NCBI GenBank assembly: GCA_038883795.1 | Contig: JAVZLK010000005.1 | Location: forward strand, 1-64,000 | Direction: 5' to 3' | DNA: 64,000 nt | Origin: Candidatus Bathyarchaeia archaeon | GTDB taxonomy: Archaea > Thermoproteota > Bathyarchaeia > Bathyarchaeales > Bathycorpusculaceae | Notes under the pieces: model-generated | Seen by the model: the letters and a program-made list of their open reading frames with translations, nothing else | Databases searched by the model: none | What the model was told of the DNA's origin: nothing | Made by a program: the position numbers and the translations under genes | In this document: piece after piece, positions 1,617 through 7,029 of the stretch | How the letters are laid out: every line of letters begins with the position of its first letter | Position numbering within the stretch: the first letter of the stretch is position 1

Positions 1617-3311
1617 TTAACTGGTTTTATATCTACCCTTTTTTAGAAATTGTTTTTCATAGATTTCTCTAACACGCTGTATCGTGTCTGCTTCTTCTGG
1701 GTTTTTGTCTTCTCTTATGCGGTTTATTCTTGCAAAACGCAAAGCCATGCCGCACTTGTATTTTGGGCTTTTCTGAATTTCGTTATATGTTACTTCAACA
1801 ACTATTTTTGGAACTACAACAACTCTTCTTGGCTCTTCCTTTATGGTTAACTCTTTAAGGCGTTTTGTCATTTCAATGATTTCTGCATCTGTTAATCCCT
1901 TGAATGTCTTGCCAACAGTTAGATATTCTCCAGTTTCCGCATCACGCGCAGCCAAATAGTAGTCTGAAAGCCATTCATGTCTTCGCCCATAACCGTATTC
2001 AGCTGCAACAATAACCAAATCTAAGGGTTCGAGAACGGGTTTTATTTTGAGCCAATGTTTTCCACGGATTCCTGGCGTGTATGGGCTGTCAATTCTTTTT
2101 GCCATTAACCCCTCATGCCCAGCGTCTACAGCCTCTTTTAAAAATTGTTCTGCTTCCTCGCGTTTGTCTGTAATTATTTGTTTTGTTAATGGTATTTCTC
2201 CAGCATTTTCAGTCAGTATTTTTCTTCTCTGCAAATATGGAAGCGTGATTAAACTTTCGCCGTTTAGGTATAAAATGTCGAAGAGGTAAAGCTGCACGGG
2301 AATTTTTTCAGCCAATTCCTCTATTGCGTGGACTCTTTTGAATCTGCGCATTAGGTGCTGAAATGGTATGGGATAACCGCGTTTGTCTATTGCTATTACT
2401 TCTCCTTCGAAAATGGCTTCCTTCGCCCTTACATTTTCTCTGGCTTTTTCAACGATTTCTGGCAGGCTTGCAGTTACATCTGTAAGTCTTCGGCTGAAAA
2501 CTTTAATTTCGTCGTCGAGTTTATGGATTTGGATTCTAGCCCCGTCCAACTTGTATTCGAGAGCTGTTTTTCCTCCATGCTCCTTTAGGGCTTCTGTGAC
2601 GTCGTTTGCCATTTGAGCCAGCATAAGCCTAACTGGTCTAAAAACTTTAAAACCAACTTTTAGTAGACTTTCCTTACCTTCCTTTTTAGCTAGGGCGGCA
2701 ACTTCTCCAATATCACCTAAAGTCATGCTTGCCCTCTGCACTTCTTTGATGGGAATTTGGAAGGCTTTTGAAACAGCTTGCTCCATTAACCCTTCATGGA
2801 AGCCTGTTCGCATTTCCCCTATGAAAATTTTAACCAAATATTTGGCTTCGAGTGGAGAAGCAGCACTTATTAGGGCTTCTATTAGGCGTTCCTTTTTTTC
2901 CCTTGAGCCGTATCCTGTGGCTTCGGCTATAGCCTCCAGTTGGTGTCTAACTTCGGTTATTGTTAATGGTCTTTGGAAAAGGGTTGCTTGCCGTTTGATT
3001 TTGCTTTTTTCAAAGATTTCTTTTGTGGCTGAGCCTATGTCGCCAGTTTTGCTGAAAGCTTCAATAAAGACTGCCCATTCAACGCTTGCTATGCGTTTTA
3101 TTATTTCGCTTAGGGTTGCCCAACTAACATCAAGCGTTTGTTGGCTCCATTTTGGGAAGGGTCTCCCGAGAATCATGGAGGCGGCTGGCTCAACCTCTTC
3201 TGCATCCAAACTTTTTAGGAATTCTGCCACAAGGTCTATCATTTGAAGTCGTTTGGTTGTGGCTTCAAGTTTTTCGCAAAGCTCTGCTAATGTTATGAAA
3301 GGAGTCTGCAT
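1617..3311 (-). CDS. lig: ATP-dependent DNA ligase
   Basis: EYKLDGAR (KxDG), EGLMAK, WLKIK, ALRFARI motifs; 564 aa. Confidence 0.95.
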   Translation of the reverse strand: MQTPFITLAELCEKLEATTKRLQMIDLVAEFLKSLDAEEVEPAASMILGRPFPKWSQQTLDVSWATLSEIIKRIASVEWAVFIEAFSKTGDIGSATKEIFEKSKIKRQATLFQRPLTITEVRHQLEAIAEATGYGSREKKERLIEALISAASPLEAKYLVKIFIGEMRTGFHEGLMEQAVSKAFQIPIKEVQRASMTLGDIGEVAALAKKEGKESLLKVGFKVFRPVRLMLAQMANDVTEALKEHGGKTALEYKLDGARIQIHKLDDEIKVFSRRLTDVTASLPEIVEKARENVRAKEAIFEGEVIAIDKRGYPIPFQHLMRRFKRVHAIEELAEKIPVQLYLFDILYLNGESLITLPYLQRRKILTENAGEIPLTKQIITDKREEAEQFLKEAVDAGHEGLMAKRIDSPYTPGIRGKHWLKIKPVLEPLDLVIVAAEYGYGRRHEWLSDYYLAARDAETGEYLTVGKTFKGLTDAEIIEMTKRLKELTIKEEPRRVVVVPKIVVEVTYNEIQKSPKYKCGMALRFARINRIREDKNPEEADTIQRVREIYEKQFLKKGRYKTS

Positions 3312-3403: not shown

Positions 3404-3784
3404 TTAGAATGAGGCTTCCAGTTTTTCCTTAACTTCCTTTATTTTCTTTTCTAGCTCCTTAACCTTTTCCTTATCCTTTAATGCGATGTAGCAGTCTCTT
3501 GCATATTCTAAGGCGCTTACCCCAAACCTGTCAAAACCTTTGTTGAAGGATAGTTCTGCGGATTTGAGGAAATTTTCCGCAGCCTTTTCATGGTCTTTAA
3601 GCATGTAAGCGCATTCTCCAGCCTTAAAAAGCATGGATGTGGCGTCAAAGAAGTTGTTAGCTTTACGGTATAGTTCTGAGGCTTGCAGAAATTTTTCCAT
3701 AGCTTCTTTGTATTTTCCAGTTTCATAAAGCGTATTCGCATCCTTGTGCAGTTTTACCGGGTCTTCCTTAACCTTTTCGCTCAT
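3404..3784 (-). CDS. Short TPR/SNAP-like helical repeat protein
   Basis: Repeated A..F..A.EL helical pattern; 126 aa. Confidence 0.65.
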   Translation of the reverse strand: MSEKVKEDPVKLHKDANTLYETGKYKEAMEKFLQASELYRKANNFFDATSMLFKAGECAYMLKDHEKAAENFLKSAELSFNKGFDRFGVSALEYARDCYIALKDKEKVKELEKKIKEVKEKLEASF

Positions 3785-3911
3785 AATGTCTCAACTCGCA
3801 TTTTGCTATTTATGAGCATAACACTTCCATTTAGGGTTTTCCCATTTTACACGCCTAAACAATTCTAATATAACTGTAGATGTTTAAAGAAATTTGGCTG
3901 AAGGGAAAAGC

Positions 3912-4646
3912 ATGAAAATTTGCGACGCCCACGTGCATTTGGGAAAGTCGGGACCTTGGCAACCATACATAAATCCGACAATCTACACGGATGAGCTTAT
4001 TCGGCTCTTTGACAAGTATAATGTTGAACGGGCAATAGTTTTTCCAAACCCAAATGTTGGCGATGAATATCCAAAAATGAACGAATACATAGCAAAATCC
4101 GTTAAGAGGTATCCAAAAAGGCTAATAGGGTTTGGACGAGTAGATCCAAGAAGGAAAGACGCCATAAAAGAGTTGACTGGCATAAAAAATGGCTTGGGCT
4201 TGACGGGGGTCAAGTTGCATCCGATGGTGGAATGTTTCAGACCAGACCATCCCTTCTTCAACAAATTTTTCAAGAAAACCAACGCCCTAAATCTCCCAAT
4301 ACTTTTCCATTCTGGAGACGGATTTTCCTCTCCAGGGCTTATCCTAAAAATTGCTAAGAAATATCCAAAACTTCTCATAATTCTTGCACATCTGCGAGAA
4401 GCATCGGTTAACGCCTTAAAAGAATGCGAAAATGTTTATGTTGAAACCTCTGGCACATTGCCAGACTTCATTGAACTTTCAGTTGACATAGACGAAAATC
4501 GAATATTGTTTGGCTCCGACATTCCCTATTACCGGTATCCAACCCAAATAGCAACAGTTGAGGCTGCAGAAATTTCGCAAAAAACTAAAAGAAAAATTTT
4601 CTATGAAAACTTCCAAAAATTGTTCAGCCAAAATAATGAAGGCTAA
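3912..4646 (+). CDS. Amidohydrolase_2 family metal-dependent hydrolase
   Basis: DAHVH, GVKLHP, ILFHSG, ILFGSD motifs; ATG at 3912 preferred over TTG at 3894. Confidence 0.88.
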   Translation: MKICDAHVHLGKSGPWQPYINPTIYTDELIRLFDKYNVERAIVFPNPNVGDEYPKMNEYIAKSVKRYPKRLIGFGRVDPRRKDAIKELTGIKNGLGLTGVKLHPMVECFRPDHPFFNKFFKKTNALNLPILFHSGDGFSSPGLILKIAKKYPKLLIILAHLREASVNALKECENVYVETSGTLPDFIELSVDIDENRILFGSDIPYYRYPTQIATVEAAEISQKTKRKIFYENFQKLFSQNNEG

Positions 4647-6054
4647 ACCACTTATGACTCTTAAATGTGTTAAATGCAAATCAAAATTTCCATATTCGCC
4701 ATTTCTAGGCAGATGCAACAATTGCGACGGAACCATCGAATATGATTTAGGTTTGCCAAAAAAGGGCAAAATCAAATTTTTTGGGCGCTTCAGTTTTTGG
4801 CGATATAAAATTCTACTTCCGCCAACTCGCCATCAAATCAGCTTAGGCGAGGGCGGAACACCTCTCCACAAAGCCTTAAGGCTTGCCAAAAGTTTGGGTT
4901 TGCAAGAATTATATTTGAAGGATGAAACCCGAAACCCCACAAACTCTTATAGAGACAGAGCTGCCGCGCTTTATGTATCAAATGCTGTCGACCTCAAGCA
5001 CGACACTTTAGTTTGTGCATCTAATGGAAATTTAGGCGCCTCTTTGGCTGCATATTGTGCTAAGGCTGGACTAAACTGCCACTTAATTGTACCAAAACTC
5101 GTGGACGTTGGAAAATTGGCGCAGATGCTAGTTTATGATGCCACAATAGAAGAGTTTGGGGAAATTTTGGACGACTCCATAGGTAAGGCTGAAACCTTGG
5201 CAAAGGAGATGAATTGGTATCAAGCTACAGCCGAATTAAATCCATTGGCAATTGAGGCTCAGAAAACAATTTCTTATGAGGTTTATGAGCAATTTGGCGT
5301 TCCAGACTACTTCATAGTGCCCATGGGAAGCGGTGGAACAATCTATTCCATCTGGAAAGGCTTCAAAGAACTCAAACAGCTCAAAATAGCAGATTCGCTG
5401 CCAAAAATGGTTGGTGTTCAACCAGAAGGAAGCTCGTCCATAGTCAAAACATTTTTAGAAGGACAAACAAAAATACTGAAAATCTCTAAACCATCCACCC
5501 ATGCCTTAGCCGTTTTAGTATCCCAACCGCTCCAGGGTGAGCTTGCCATAAAAGCCATAAAAGAATCAGAGGGCTTAGCCTTAACAGTTTCTGACCAAGA
5601 AATCTTCTCAGCAGAACTTCAAATAGCCAAACTTGAAGGAATGTTCGCAGAACCAGCAAGCTCAGCAACAGTCGCAGCCCTAAGAAAGCTTATTGAAACC
5701 GAAAAAATTGATAAAGGTAATAGTGTTGTCTGCTTAATCAGTGGAAGCGGACTCAAAGCTACAGATGTGCTCCACGCCTTAACCAAAAAGCAAAAAACAG
5801 CAAAAGTAGGCTTAGAACTAAGCACAAAAGAGAAGATATTACGGATTCTTAGCGAAAAAGATACTTATGGTTACGATTTATGGAAAAAACTCGCAAAAAC
5901 AATGACACGCGCCGCGATATACCAACACCTAAACGAACTTTCAGAGAAAGGTCTGATAATAAGCTATACAAAAAATGGGAAAAGATTCTTCAAAATAACG
6001 GAGCGCGGCAAAAAAGCTTTACAAGCGATGGATGATTTGAAACTTCTCTTTTAG
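4636..6054 (+). CDS. Threonine-synthase-fold (PLP fold type II) protein with Lys-to-Arg at the PLP site, fused to a C-terminal PadR-type wHTH
   Basis: N-terminal CxxC/CxxC ribbon, SLGEGGTPL, NPTNSYRDR (canonical SFKDR), ASNGN, VPMGSGG, ISGSGLK; C-terminal ~75 aa with YGY, IYQHL..L...GLI, ITERG. Confidence 0.88.
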   Translation: MKAKPLMTLKCVKCKSKFPYSPFLGRCNNCDGTIEYDLGLPKKGKIKFFGRFSFWRYKILLPPTRHQISLGEGGTPLHKALRLAKSLGLQELYLKDETRNPTNSYRDRAAALYVSNAVDLKHDTLVCASNGNLGASLAAYCAKAGLNCHLIVPKLVDVGKLAQMLVYDATIEEFGEILDDSIGKAETLAKEMNWYQATAELNPLAIEAQKTISYEVYEQFGVPDYFIVPMGSGGTIYSIWKGFKELKQLKIADSLPKMVGVQPEGSSSIVKTFLEGQTKILKISKPSTHALAVLVSQPLQGELAIKAIKESEGLALTVSDQEIFSAELQIAKLEGMFAEPASSATVAALRKLIETEKIDKGNSVVCLISGSGLKATDVLHALTKKQKTAKVGLELSTKEKILRILSEKDTYGYDLWKKLAKTMTRAAIYQHLNELSEKGLIISYTKNGKRFFKITERGKKALQAMDDLKLLF

Positions 6055-6056
6055 GT

Positions 6057-6071
6057 CGAAAAGCTAATATA
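6057..6071 (+). promoter_or_regulatory. Probable BRE + TATA box of the S component gene
   Basis: cgaaaag followed by ctaatata, about 45-50 bp upstream of the start codon. Confidence 0.55.
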
Positions 6072-6092
6072 GTATAGTTATAACTATACTAT
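6069..6092. promoter_or_regulatory. Perfect 24-bp palindrome, candidate operator
   Basis: ATAGTATAGTTA|TAACTATACTAT in the 60-bp gap between the wHTH gene and the transporter gene. Confidence 0.8.
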
Positions 6093-6114: not shown

Positions 6115-7029
6115 TTGTTGATGGAAAAGCAATTAACGGTAAAAGTATTTTCGGGCATAGGCGGATTTTTAGCAGCGGCAATTTCAATTCTAGAAGTTTT
6201 CACCATCTTATCTGATATGGGGTTTGTGATATTTGAGAAAATAAGTTTAACAGATTCCCAAAAAATATTCATCAGCCTTCTAATTTTCTTTGGCTTATTT
6301 AGCGCTATTCTCGAGTTGGCCAGTATTTATTTTATGCGCAAAGGACATACAAAGGCTAGCTCTATCTCAAGTTTTGCAGGAGCGATATCAGCATTACTTG
6401 GGCTTTTAACCCCAAGCATTTTTGGATTCGCTCAATCTAGCGTTTTTCTGGTCGGTATGATAGTTAGCATGATTTTTATGGGAACCAGTGCAGTAATCGC
6501 TTCAACTGTGCCGTCAAAAGCGATTAGGGGTCCACTTTTAACAAGTGTAGAAGTTGCTGTTGTAGCTTCATTTTCGGCTTTGTACGCTGTATCGATAGTT
6601 ATTACATTTCAAATATATCCGATTCCATCACCAACTGGAGGTTTCCTACATTTCGGAGATTTTGTTGTGTTTCTAGTCGCTTTACTTTTTGGGGTAAAAG
6701 TAGGAGGACTCGTTGGAGTTGTAGGCGCTGTCGTAGCAGATTTTTACCTTGCCTATCCTCGTTGGTATGTCTCAATCATTGCGCATGGACTGGAAGGTGT
6801 CATACCAGGATTTACAAAGAAGAAAAATTTTGTGTTACAATTGATTGCATGCATAATAGGCGGCTTTCTTATGGCTGCAACCTACTTCTTCGTAAACATA
6901 TTCATTAAGGGCTATCCTGTTGCTGTCATCTCTTTTGTTCAAGACCTTTTCCTTCAAGCTGGAGCCTCAATAGCCGTAGGATTACCCATAGTCAAGATTG
7001 TAGAAAGAATATTGCCGTGGTTCCGTTAA
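6115..7029 (+). CDS. ECF transporter S component (HmpT-like) with an extra N-terminal membrane domain
   Basis: C-terminal half has P.PTGGFLHFGD...ALLFG...G...ADFYLAYP.W....HGLEG; N-terminal ~135 aa has about four extra hydrophobic helices. Confidence 0.8.
   Translation: MLMEKQLTVKVFSGIGGFLAAAISILEVFTILSDMGFVIFEKISLTDSQKIFISLLIFFGLFSAILELASIYFMRKGHTKASSISSFAGAISALLGLLTPSIFGFAQSSVFLVGMIVSMIFMGTSAVIASTVPSKAIRGPLLTSVEVAVVASFSALYAVSIVITFQIYPIPSPTGGFLHFGDFVVFLVALLFGVKVGGLVGVVGAVVADFYLAYPRWYVSIIAHGLEGVIPGFTKKKNFVLQLIACIIGGFLMAATYFFVNIFIKGYPVAVISFVQDLFLQAGASIAVGLPIVKIVERILPWFR

Follow-up and report, generated by a model that had tools for sequence, protein, structure and literature searches.

A threonine synthase-like protein lacking the Schiff-base lysine and fused to a PadR-type domain is a candidate vitamin B6-responsive regulator in Bathyarchaeia

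Results

The locus and its fused gene

Analysis of the first 64,000 nucleotides of contig JAVZLK010000005.1 from a Candidatus Bathyarchaeia archaeon (assembly GCA_038883795.1; this stretch is referred to below as the window) uncovered a gene that joins a threonine synthase (ThrC)-like domain to a C-terminal PadR-type winged helix-turn-helix (wHTH) domain. The gene is followed by a perfect palindrome, a candidate operator, and then by the gene for a solitary S component of an energy-coupling factor (ECF) transporter. The genome bin holding the window comprises 2.18 Mb (2,182,157 bases) in 81 contigs and is 87% complete. Together with comparisons across related genomes, the following features suggest that the fused protein (P0001) is a regulator of vitamin B6 genes, not an enzyme.

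4636..6054, + strand: ThrC-like/PadR fusion gene, a stop-free open reading frame (ORF) of 472 amino acids from ATG 4636
4666..4725, + strand: four-cysteine zinc-ribbon motif (Cys11, Cys14, Cys27, Cys30), also found in unfused archaeal-type ThrC relatives
4837..5745, + strand: ThrC-like domain of the fold-type II enzymes dependent on pyridoxal 5'-phosphate (PLP), residues 68-370, proposed ligand sensor (PF00291, TIGR00260 and PDB matches)
4951..4953, + strand: AGA codon, Arg106 at the position of the ThrC Schiff-base lysine (alignment to 6cgq, 2d1f and 2zsj)
5785..5817, + strand: flexible linker, residues 384-394, the sole internal segment with a predicted local distance difference test score (pLDDT) <50 in the AlphaFold2 model
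5836..6024, + strand: PadR-type wHTH, residues 401-463, then a C-terminal helix to residue 471 (PF03551 and AlphaFold2 topology)
6058..6069, + strand: purine-rich, A/T-rich stretch GAAAAGCTAATA, from its sequence a candidate B recognition element (BRE)/TATA element of the downstream gene
6069..6092, no strand: perfect 24-bp palindrome ATAGTATAGTTATAACTATACTAT, candidate operator, with the core TAGTATAG-N6-CTATACTA at 6070-6091 (22 bp)
6115..7029, + strand: solitary ECF S component of the PdxU/HmpT family (P0002; PF07155), predicted target, probable start at ATG 6121

Since most homologues are 466 amino acids long and begin at Met7 of the query, the true start of P0001 is probably ATG 4654, giving a product of 466 amino acids. 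Pfam places the PALP domain (PF00291) at residues 68-370 (256.4 bits, E 4.6e-76) and PadR (PF03551) at residues 401-463 (38.9 bits against a cut-off of 27, E 9e-10), in agreement with the C-terminal wHTH that an initial annotation, made from the sequence alone, had described. Solved threonine synthases, 6cgq, 2d1f and 2zsj among them, match with E-values down to 2.5e-59, while a sequence search of solved structures found none that carries both domains in one chain. The TIGR00260 thrC model scores 206.4 bits, above its cut-off of 167.1, which shows homology, not activity. The top NCBIfam model, NF004170 (PRK05638, "threonine synthase"), reaches 392 bits, below its cut-off of 421, and covers residues 9-465 at model positions 2-441 of 442, wHTH included. 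Because this model itself spans the wHTH, its equivalog name is misleading; public names of family members do read threonine synthase, as the initial annotation had anticipated. Depending on the column, the zinc-ribbon cysteines are kept by 82-88% of the fused representatives in the wider family and by 88-94% of the unfused.

Loss of the Schiff-base lysine and retention of the cofactor pocket

When aligned with 6cgq, 2d1f and 2zsj, NPTNSYRDR of P0001 falls on the NPTGSFKDR of the solved enzymes, so that Arg106 takes the place of the Schiff-base lysine, as first read from the AGA codon at 4951-4953. Fold-type II catalysis requires this lysine, and the S-F-K-D-R strand of a catalytically active ThrC is thus found here without it. 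The initial annotation had cautioned that AGA could be a sequencing error, a caution that comparison set aside. Arginine occupies the site in all 120 close homologues (72-94% identical) and in 80/80 orthologous loci fetched from named Bathyarchaeia genomes, where it is encoded by AGA (35), AGG (24), CGA (13), CGT (5), CGC (2) and CGG (1); four of these six codons are two steps from a lysine codon. The use of six arginine codons across all 80 loci rules out a sequencing error and argues for purifying selection on arginine, and with the frame intact and the protein highly conserved, a decaying pseudogene was likewise rejected. In contigs from four hot-spring sequencing runs, none of the 40 differences from the window that were listed (288 in all) falls at 4951-4953. 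Two further ThrC-family genes, both with the lysine, are encoded elsewhere in the same genome.

The remainder of the cofactor pocket is retained. As the initial annotation had noted, P0001 keeps ASNGN, VPMGSGG and SGSGLK, each aligned with the corresponding ThrC motif. Residues G231, G233, N132 and S369, which we take to be PLP contacts, are all present, and their columns are 90-100% conserved in the fused group; the pocket elements comprise the NPT-S-F/Y-x-DR strand, Asn132 of ASNGN, the G231-S-G233-G234 loop and S/T369-G-x-G-L-K. A comparison of 72 fused with 65 unfused sequences identified approximately 55 catalytic-domain positions equally conserved in both groups, including N100, P101, T102, S104, F105, D107, R108, G131, N132, G231, G233, T369, G372 and K374. 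Only K106, S129, T288 and D320 are conserved in ThrC and relaxed in the fused group. Retention of these ~55 positions while K106 is relaxed suggests that the pocket has been kept and catalysis given up.

Lysine loss accompanies the fusion across the family

In order to place P0001 within its family, the best 150 matches from a search of 1.84 billion representative proteins (clustered at 50% identity) were examined. A wHTH is present in 75 of the 150, and the lysine column could be read in 73 of these. Among the fused representatives 71/73 carry another residue (L 18, R 15, I 15, V 6, T 5, M 4, F 3, and S, Y, A, N and H once each) and 2/73 carry lysine, while lysine is present in 72 of the 75 representatives without an aligned wHTH. 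The three unfused exceptions are two short fragments with arginine and one 519-amino-acid protein with valine, which groups with the fused clade. Loss of the lysine goes with wHTH fusion (71/73 fused vs 3/75 unfused). The possibility raised at the outset, that arginine is conserved in all wHTH-fused copies, therefore stood only in part: the lysine is missing almost throughout, but arginine is not universal, hydrophobic residues are commoner, and one sublineage has lysine.

A FastTree phylogeny of the catalytic domain alone resolves an unfused lysine clade, a fused clade with mostly hydrophobic residues at the site and a fused arginine clade. This topology fits a single origin of the fusion, in a tree that is unrooted in substance and places one fused protein (P0150) beside the unfused clade. 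The lysine-bearing fused proteins nest inside the arginine clade, which suggests an Arg-to-Lys reversal. Taken together, a conserved ThrC homologue without the lysine and fused to a wHTH is strongly supported.

The palindrome and the genes behind it

The palindrome lies between the regulator stop codon (6054) and the next gene and ends 29 nt before ATG 6121. It begins in an A/T-rich stretch with GAAAAG ahead of it, and across the 80 orthologous loci information content is moderately higher in the last bases before it. In archaeal promoters the region from the TATA element to the start codon is where repressors act; activators usually bind further up, ahead of BRE/TATA.

Each of the 80 orthologous loci has a site that departs from the 16 specified positions by no more than 3 mismatches, and its information content over 22 bp is 1.66 bits per position, compared with 0.34 and 0.18 for the flanks of 25 nt. 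In 72 of the 77 loci where the regulator stop is known, the site follows that stop by no more than 150 nt, and 48 of these sites are perfect; in the other 3 of the 80 loci the regulator ORF was missed by a motif filter, and the site is also present. Five of the 77 loci contain intervening DNA, and there the site is found 13-33 nt before the S-component start in four and 135 nt before it in the fifth (L010). Because such insertions leave the site with the S gene, it belongs to the downstream promoter region and not to the regulator 3' end. The palindrome singled out in the initial annotation is thus conserved and travels with the downstream gene.

No further sites were found in the 653,658 bases of the orthologous loci, and none was found upstream of the regulator through which it could regulate itself. 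In the whole 2.18-Mb genome the perfect site occurs once. A larger regulon in this genome was considered and rejected, as the next-best site (14/16, C6:78765) falls inside an ORF. Nine other related genomes searched at ≤2 mismatches contain one strong site each; a few weaker extra sites in these nine occur at the rate of a reversed-pattern control, and none adjoins B6 genes. Distant members of the family, 31-37% identical to P0001, have another palindrome (TTAAAGTTTAAACTTTAA), and subfamily-specific palindromes at the same place are as expected if operator and wHTH co-evolve.

Two further observations concern the palindrome itself. In one sub-branch (L046, L048, L050, L056, L062 and similar loci) a third half-site copy, AAGTYACAACTATACTAA, lies ~10 nt past the palindrome, as though there were an additional unit for binding or room for a second dimer. 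Many contigs from four hot-spring runs agree with the window across ~6057-6091/6092 alone and diverge on both sides; related strains appear to share a promoter-palindrome island between differing flanking genes.

Behind the palindrome, 77/80 loci have a gene for a PF07155-type S component. The remaining three (L047, L051 and L065) instead have pdxS and then pdxT, and their palindrome is perfect; the queries used to find PdxS and PdxT had been confirmed by Pfam beforehand. No threonine-pathway gene stands behind the palindrome in the 80 orthologous loci. A palindrome between the regulator and a PdxU/HmpT-type S gene or pdxS-pdxT, in essentially all orthologous loci, is therefore strongly supported, and the connection to vitamin B6 drawn in the initial annotation is strengthened by the PLP synthase genes.

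In the window the downstream product, P0002, matches PF07155 at residues 145-297 (71.5 bits against a cut-off of 26.7), and the one solved structure that it matches is the HmpT S component (4hzu, chain S; E 4.1e-9), which upholds the earlier assignment of this gene to the HmpT family. P0002 shares H84, Y120 and Q143 of the six conserved pocket residues of HmpT and has conservative replacements at the other three (E41 by Asp, Q87 by Glu, N140 by Asp). The protein carries a hydrophobic N-terminal extension of ~140 amino acids (window 6115-6540); this long form is the best match in only 5/80 loci, the other S components being ~175-255 amino acids long. An ecfA-ecfA'-ecfT module is encoded elsewhere in the genome, on contig C6. 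Of the three characterised prokaryotic B6 transporters, two, PdxU and PdxU2/HmpT, belong to PF07155/COG4720 (PMC9997740), and HmpT was found loaded with pyridoxamine (PMC4860826). In the context of this regulon, the archaeal PF07155 S components are likely B6 importers.

Distant family members and their neighbours

Beyond the orthologous loci, we analysed 19 distant fused loci whose proteins are 41-57% identical to each other and have Met, Ile, Leu, Val or Thr at the lysine site. The set is non-random: loci were chosen for reaching the wHTH end, and two for a known PdxS in the genome. The genes pdxS-pdxT are divergent neighbours of the fused gene in 3/19 (L088, L123 and L124, from three genera of one family), and a PF07155 gene adjoins it in 10/19 and lies 2.3 kb away in one more. 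These three divergent pairs lend further weight to the B6 connection. In a phylum-wide search with NF004170, the S component adjoins the fused gene in 22/30 loci, members 31-37% identical to P0001 included; these 30 loci overlap partly with the 80 orthologous loci.

The NF004170 cut-off was exceeded in only 8/301 phylum genomes. Among those eight, arginine is at the lysine site in the two top-scoring loci (L093 and L094), L098 and L099. L093 (genome G292) and L094 (genome G160) match at ~700 bits with one TGA inside the match; their ORFs are 441 and 435 amino acids from stop to stop, and the model probably runs past the stop codon.

In some order-level relatives (L092, L103 and L113 and, by coordinates, G106:C17) the divergent neighbour of the fused gene is an unfused thrC of 412-424 amino acids that bears the lysine, so that the genes run thrC, fused gene, S component. 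This arrangement may record the tandem duplication from which the regulator arose.

Predicted structure and dimer

The AlphaFold2 model of P0001 has a mean pLDDT of 92.9. In the modelled wHTH, helices at 397-407, 412-419 and 425-437 are followed by a two-strand wing (441-454) and a final helix (456-471). A homodimer prediction scored 0.80 vs 0.00 for the best control, where the score mark was reached by 20/30 proteins solved as pairs and 1/23 solved as single chains. The dimer runs share at least 73% of their contacts, with a partner pLDDT of at least 84, and the interface lies within the ~380-amino-acid enzyme-like domain; PLP was included in the prediction, in which small molecules carry no score. 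P0001 is therefore predicted by the model to dimerise through its ThrC-like domains, although this result may reflect likeness more than independent evidence because ThrC dimers have already been solved.

Vitamin B6 supply in the host and its relatives

Searches of this genome (87% complete) gave no match to PdxS, PdxT or PdxJ, so the regulated transporter may be the organism's main route of B6 supply. For PdxK, the genome offered nothing beyond one PfkB-family kinase, whose match to Phos_pyr_kin stays just below threshold (26.4 bits; cut-off 27). This kinase, at G000:C2:153562-154476 (L086 1030-1944), is the sole candidate found for a B6 salvage kinase, and it adjoins a formylmethanofuran-tetrahydromethanopterin formyltransferase gene.

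Of 121 sampled genomes of the Bathyarchaeia class, only 23 have a PdxS match above the cut-off. The regulator is present in 35 of the 121 and both together in 3, while many have neither, at an E-value threshold that left out distant members. An anti-correlation between regulator and PdxS was looked for in these genomes; it is not clean, and no conclusion was drawn from it.

Other genes around the regulator

The genes at the start of the window, up to the regulator, are the following.

1-393: ORF like a tyrosine-recombinase C-terminus, truncated by the window edge (by eye only)
557-1591, - strand: 344-amino-acid ORF
1617-3311, - strand: 564-amino-acid DNA-ligase-like ORF
3404-3784, - strand: TPR protein (Pfam TPR/SNAP matches)
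3894-4646: Amidohydro_2 gene, upstream of the regulator gene

In most of the 80 loci the regulator is accompanied, in synteny, by the ligase and TPR genes. The Amidohydro_2 gene ends 8 nt before ATG 4654 or, with the start at ATG 4636, overlaps the regulator by 11 nt. It was considered as part of the system and rejected, since only 7/80 loci have a full-length copy immediately ahead of the regulator; three further matches among the 80 are short or lie downstream of the regulator. The gene thus seems to have been inserted, in this lineage, between those for the TPR protein and the regulator.

Discussion

A model for B6-responsive repression

We put the probability at roughly 70% that P0001 is a dimeric, B6-responsive local transcription factor and not an enzyme, probably a PLP-bound repressor of B6 genes. 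The evidence is drawn from sequence comparison: the lysine is lost and the pocket kept, and the palindrome stands before B6 uptake-type or PLP synthase genes. The comparisons that could be made from sequence all favour the reading given in the initial annotation, in which non-covalent B6 binding and repression are inferences. In this model a ThrC paralogue would have gained a C-terminal PadR wHTH and then lost its Schiff-base lysine, with many different replacements. PLP or another vitamer would occupy the retained pocket without an aldimine, and because no internal aldimine can form without the lysine, binding would be reversible and occupancy would track the free pool. Each of the two wHTH domains, tethered by its flexible linker, would contact one half-site of the palindrome, which abuts or overlaps a TATA-like element that would lie ~30 nt before the start codon. 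The liganded dimer would bind the palindrome and repress the genes for B6 uptake or PLP synthase, and under B6 scarcity the apo protein would release the DNA, so that uptake or synthesis is switched on.

Somewhat less firmly, we favour the broader view that these proteins make up a widespread and so far undescribed family of transcription factors responsive to B6 (PLP), the first B6 regulators in Archaea, convergent with PdxR, which control uptake or synthesis through lineage-specific palindromes, and that many Bathyarchaeia are B6 auxotrophs.

Several observations weigh against a B6-responsive repressor and bound how far it can be extended. Neither pdxS-pdxT nor a PF07155 gene is present in the fetched DNA at 5/19 distant loci, and no B6 gene is present in the fetched DNA at 8/30 phylum loci; neighbours at loci without a B6 gene include GatE, EF-1 beta and AIR-synthase-like genes. 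Many close relatives hold neither the regulator nor PdxS, and in two genomes that hold both (G082 and G056) only the S-gene site was found at ≤2 mismatches. A fused sublineage in Bathyarchaeia has the lysine (2/73 representatives; 15/15 of the P0124 cluster members listed; loci L147-L152), in the motif NPTSSFKDR and variants, and its genes still adjoin a PF07155 S component in 4/6 loci, with two of the six truncated; a related palindrome is found in L150 and L152, and none was seen in L148 and L151. Since this sublineage still adjoins the S component, lysine loss is typical of the role but not obligatory for it. Repression, as the sign of regulation, is read from the position of the palindrome. 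Substrate specificity within PF07155 has been verified experimentally only for HmpT (PMC4860826, PMC9997740).

A further point of this kind leads to the first alternative. The fused family retains almost every residue conserved in true ThrC, not the cofactor contacts alone, which would fit an amino-acid-like ligand or a PLP adduct. The effector coupled to the transporter may then be not B6 but an amino acid or an intermediate of a pathway, such as threonine, O-phosphohomoserine or a PLP-amino-acid adduct. GabR-type regulators use PLP together with an amino-acid effector, and the lysine-bearing thrC divergent to the fused gene in L092, L103 and L113 points the same way. We nevertheless consider this unlikely: the palindrome precedes B6 uptake-type or PLP synthase genes, and no threonine gene, in 80/80 loci, it lies on the S-gene side and not in the thrC-regulator spacer, and three ThrC-conserved residues besides the lysine (S129, T288 and D320) are relaxed.

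An opposite sign of regulation carries a similarly small chance. Here the protein would activate the S-component or pdxST promoter when free of ligand or bound to a B6 precursor, much as bacterial PdxR is, by titles cited in PMC9997740, an activator counteracted by PLP. The palindrome, however, sits at or inside the TATA-like stretch and ~29 nt before the start codon, which in archaeal promoters is where a repressor would bind.

It is very unlikely that the system controls uptake of the thiamine precursor hydroxymethylpyrimidine or of another micronutrient. Not every PF07155 protein need be specific for B6: the Pfam model is named for riboflavin, HmpT was first predicted to carry hydroxymethylpyrimidine, and PdxU is without a verified substrate (PMC4860826 and PMC9997740). 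Yet the substrate found bound to HmpT was pyridoxamine (PMC4860826), the palindrome precedes pdxS-pdxT in 3 orthologous loci, distant members pair with the same two genes, and the sensor derives from a PLP enzyme whose PLP contacts are kept.

Least probable of all is a threonine synthase that still works and binds DNA as well, or an arginine that marks an assembly error or a decaying pseudogene, in spite of the TIGR00260 score and an AGA codon one base from AAA, given six arginine codons across 80/80 loci, an intact and highly conserved frame, the absence of lysine from 71/73 fused representatives with hydrophobic residues often in its place, the established need of catalysis for that lysine and two lysine-bearing paralogues in the same genome.

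The B6-responsive repressor, if true, would fill a gap in archaeal B6 regulation with a design convergent to MocR/PdxR, and would offer a clean natural case of a pseudoenzyme turned sensor, in which one catalytic residue was lost and a DNA-binding domain gained. Because the named family members are all labelled threonine synthase and NF004170 extends over the fusion, this gene may be miscounted as thrC when the metabolism of Bathyarchaeia and other Thermoproteota is reconstructed. The presence of PdxS in only 23/121 class genomes points to B6 dependence being common in this major lineage of sediments and hot springs. A thermostable, reversible PLP binder read out on DNA could, on the same condition, serve as a B6 biosensor.

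Comparison with known systems

Full-text searches outside subscription journals and supplements found no paper on a ThrC-like/wHTH regulator or on an archaeal B6 regulator; a paper on archaeal fusions mentions only a cysH-thrC fusion (PMC11237513). Enzyme-derived vitamin sensors are known (PdxR, ThiR and RbkR), and their archaeal ThrC-like/PadR counterpart is most likely undescribed.

Along with its E-value of 2.5e-59, P0001 shares with ThrC the PLP motifs, the four-cysteine ribbon of unfused archaeal relatives and a predicted catalytic-domain dimer; the archaeal-type ThrC models are PRK08197 and PRK05638/NF004170. The P0001 family differs in that it is without the Schiff-base lysine, carries a PadR wHTH after a linker and is linked to B6 genes, not to threonine genes.

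Unlike MocR regulators, which combine an N-terminal GntR wHTH with a fold type I aminotransferase domain, P0001 has an N-terminal fold type II domain and a C-terminal PadR domain. Pfam finds on it only PALP and C-terminal PadR-like or other wHTH models, which places it outside MocR/PdxR. MocR regulators also keep their lysine. The likeness to PdxR and GabR lies in a PLP-enzyme-derived sensor joined to a wHTH and, for PdxR, in a regulon of pdxST and a PdxU-type transporter: in bacteria the genes under PdxR control are pdxST, pdxK and pdxU, and Archaea are reported to have no MocR regulators (PMC5320631).

P0002 belongs with PdxU and PdxU2/HmpT (PF07155, COG4720) and differs from them by its ~140-amino-acid N-terminal extension. 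With PadR proteins P0001 shares the wHTH and C-terminal helix, a palindromic candidate target and a predicted dimer. Canonical PadR proteins are small (~110-180 amino acids) and dimerise via their own helices, whereas the interface predicted here lies in the ~380-amino-acid enzyme-like domain. The closest archaeal parallels in design are ThiR (thiamine) and RbkR (riboflavin), paralogues of vitamin-pathway enzymes that have a DNA-binding domain and control vitamin genes locally. Their sensors have other folds; moreover, the sensor described here derives from a B6-dependent enzyme and not from a B6-pathway enzyme, so the cofactor itself would be the signal.

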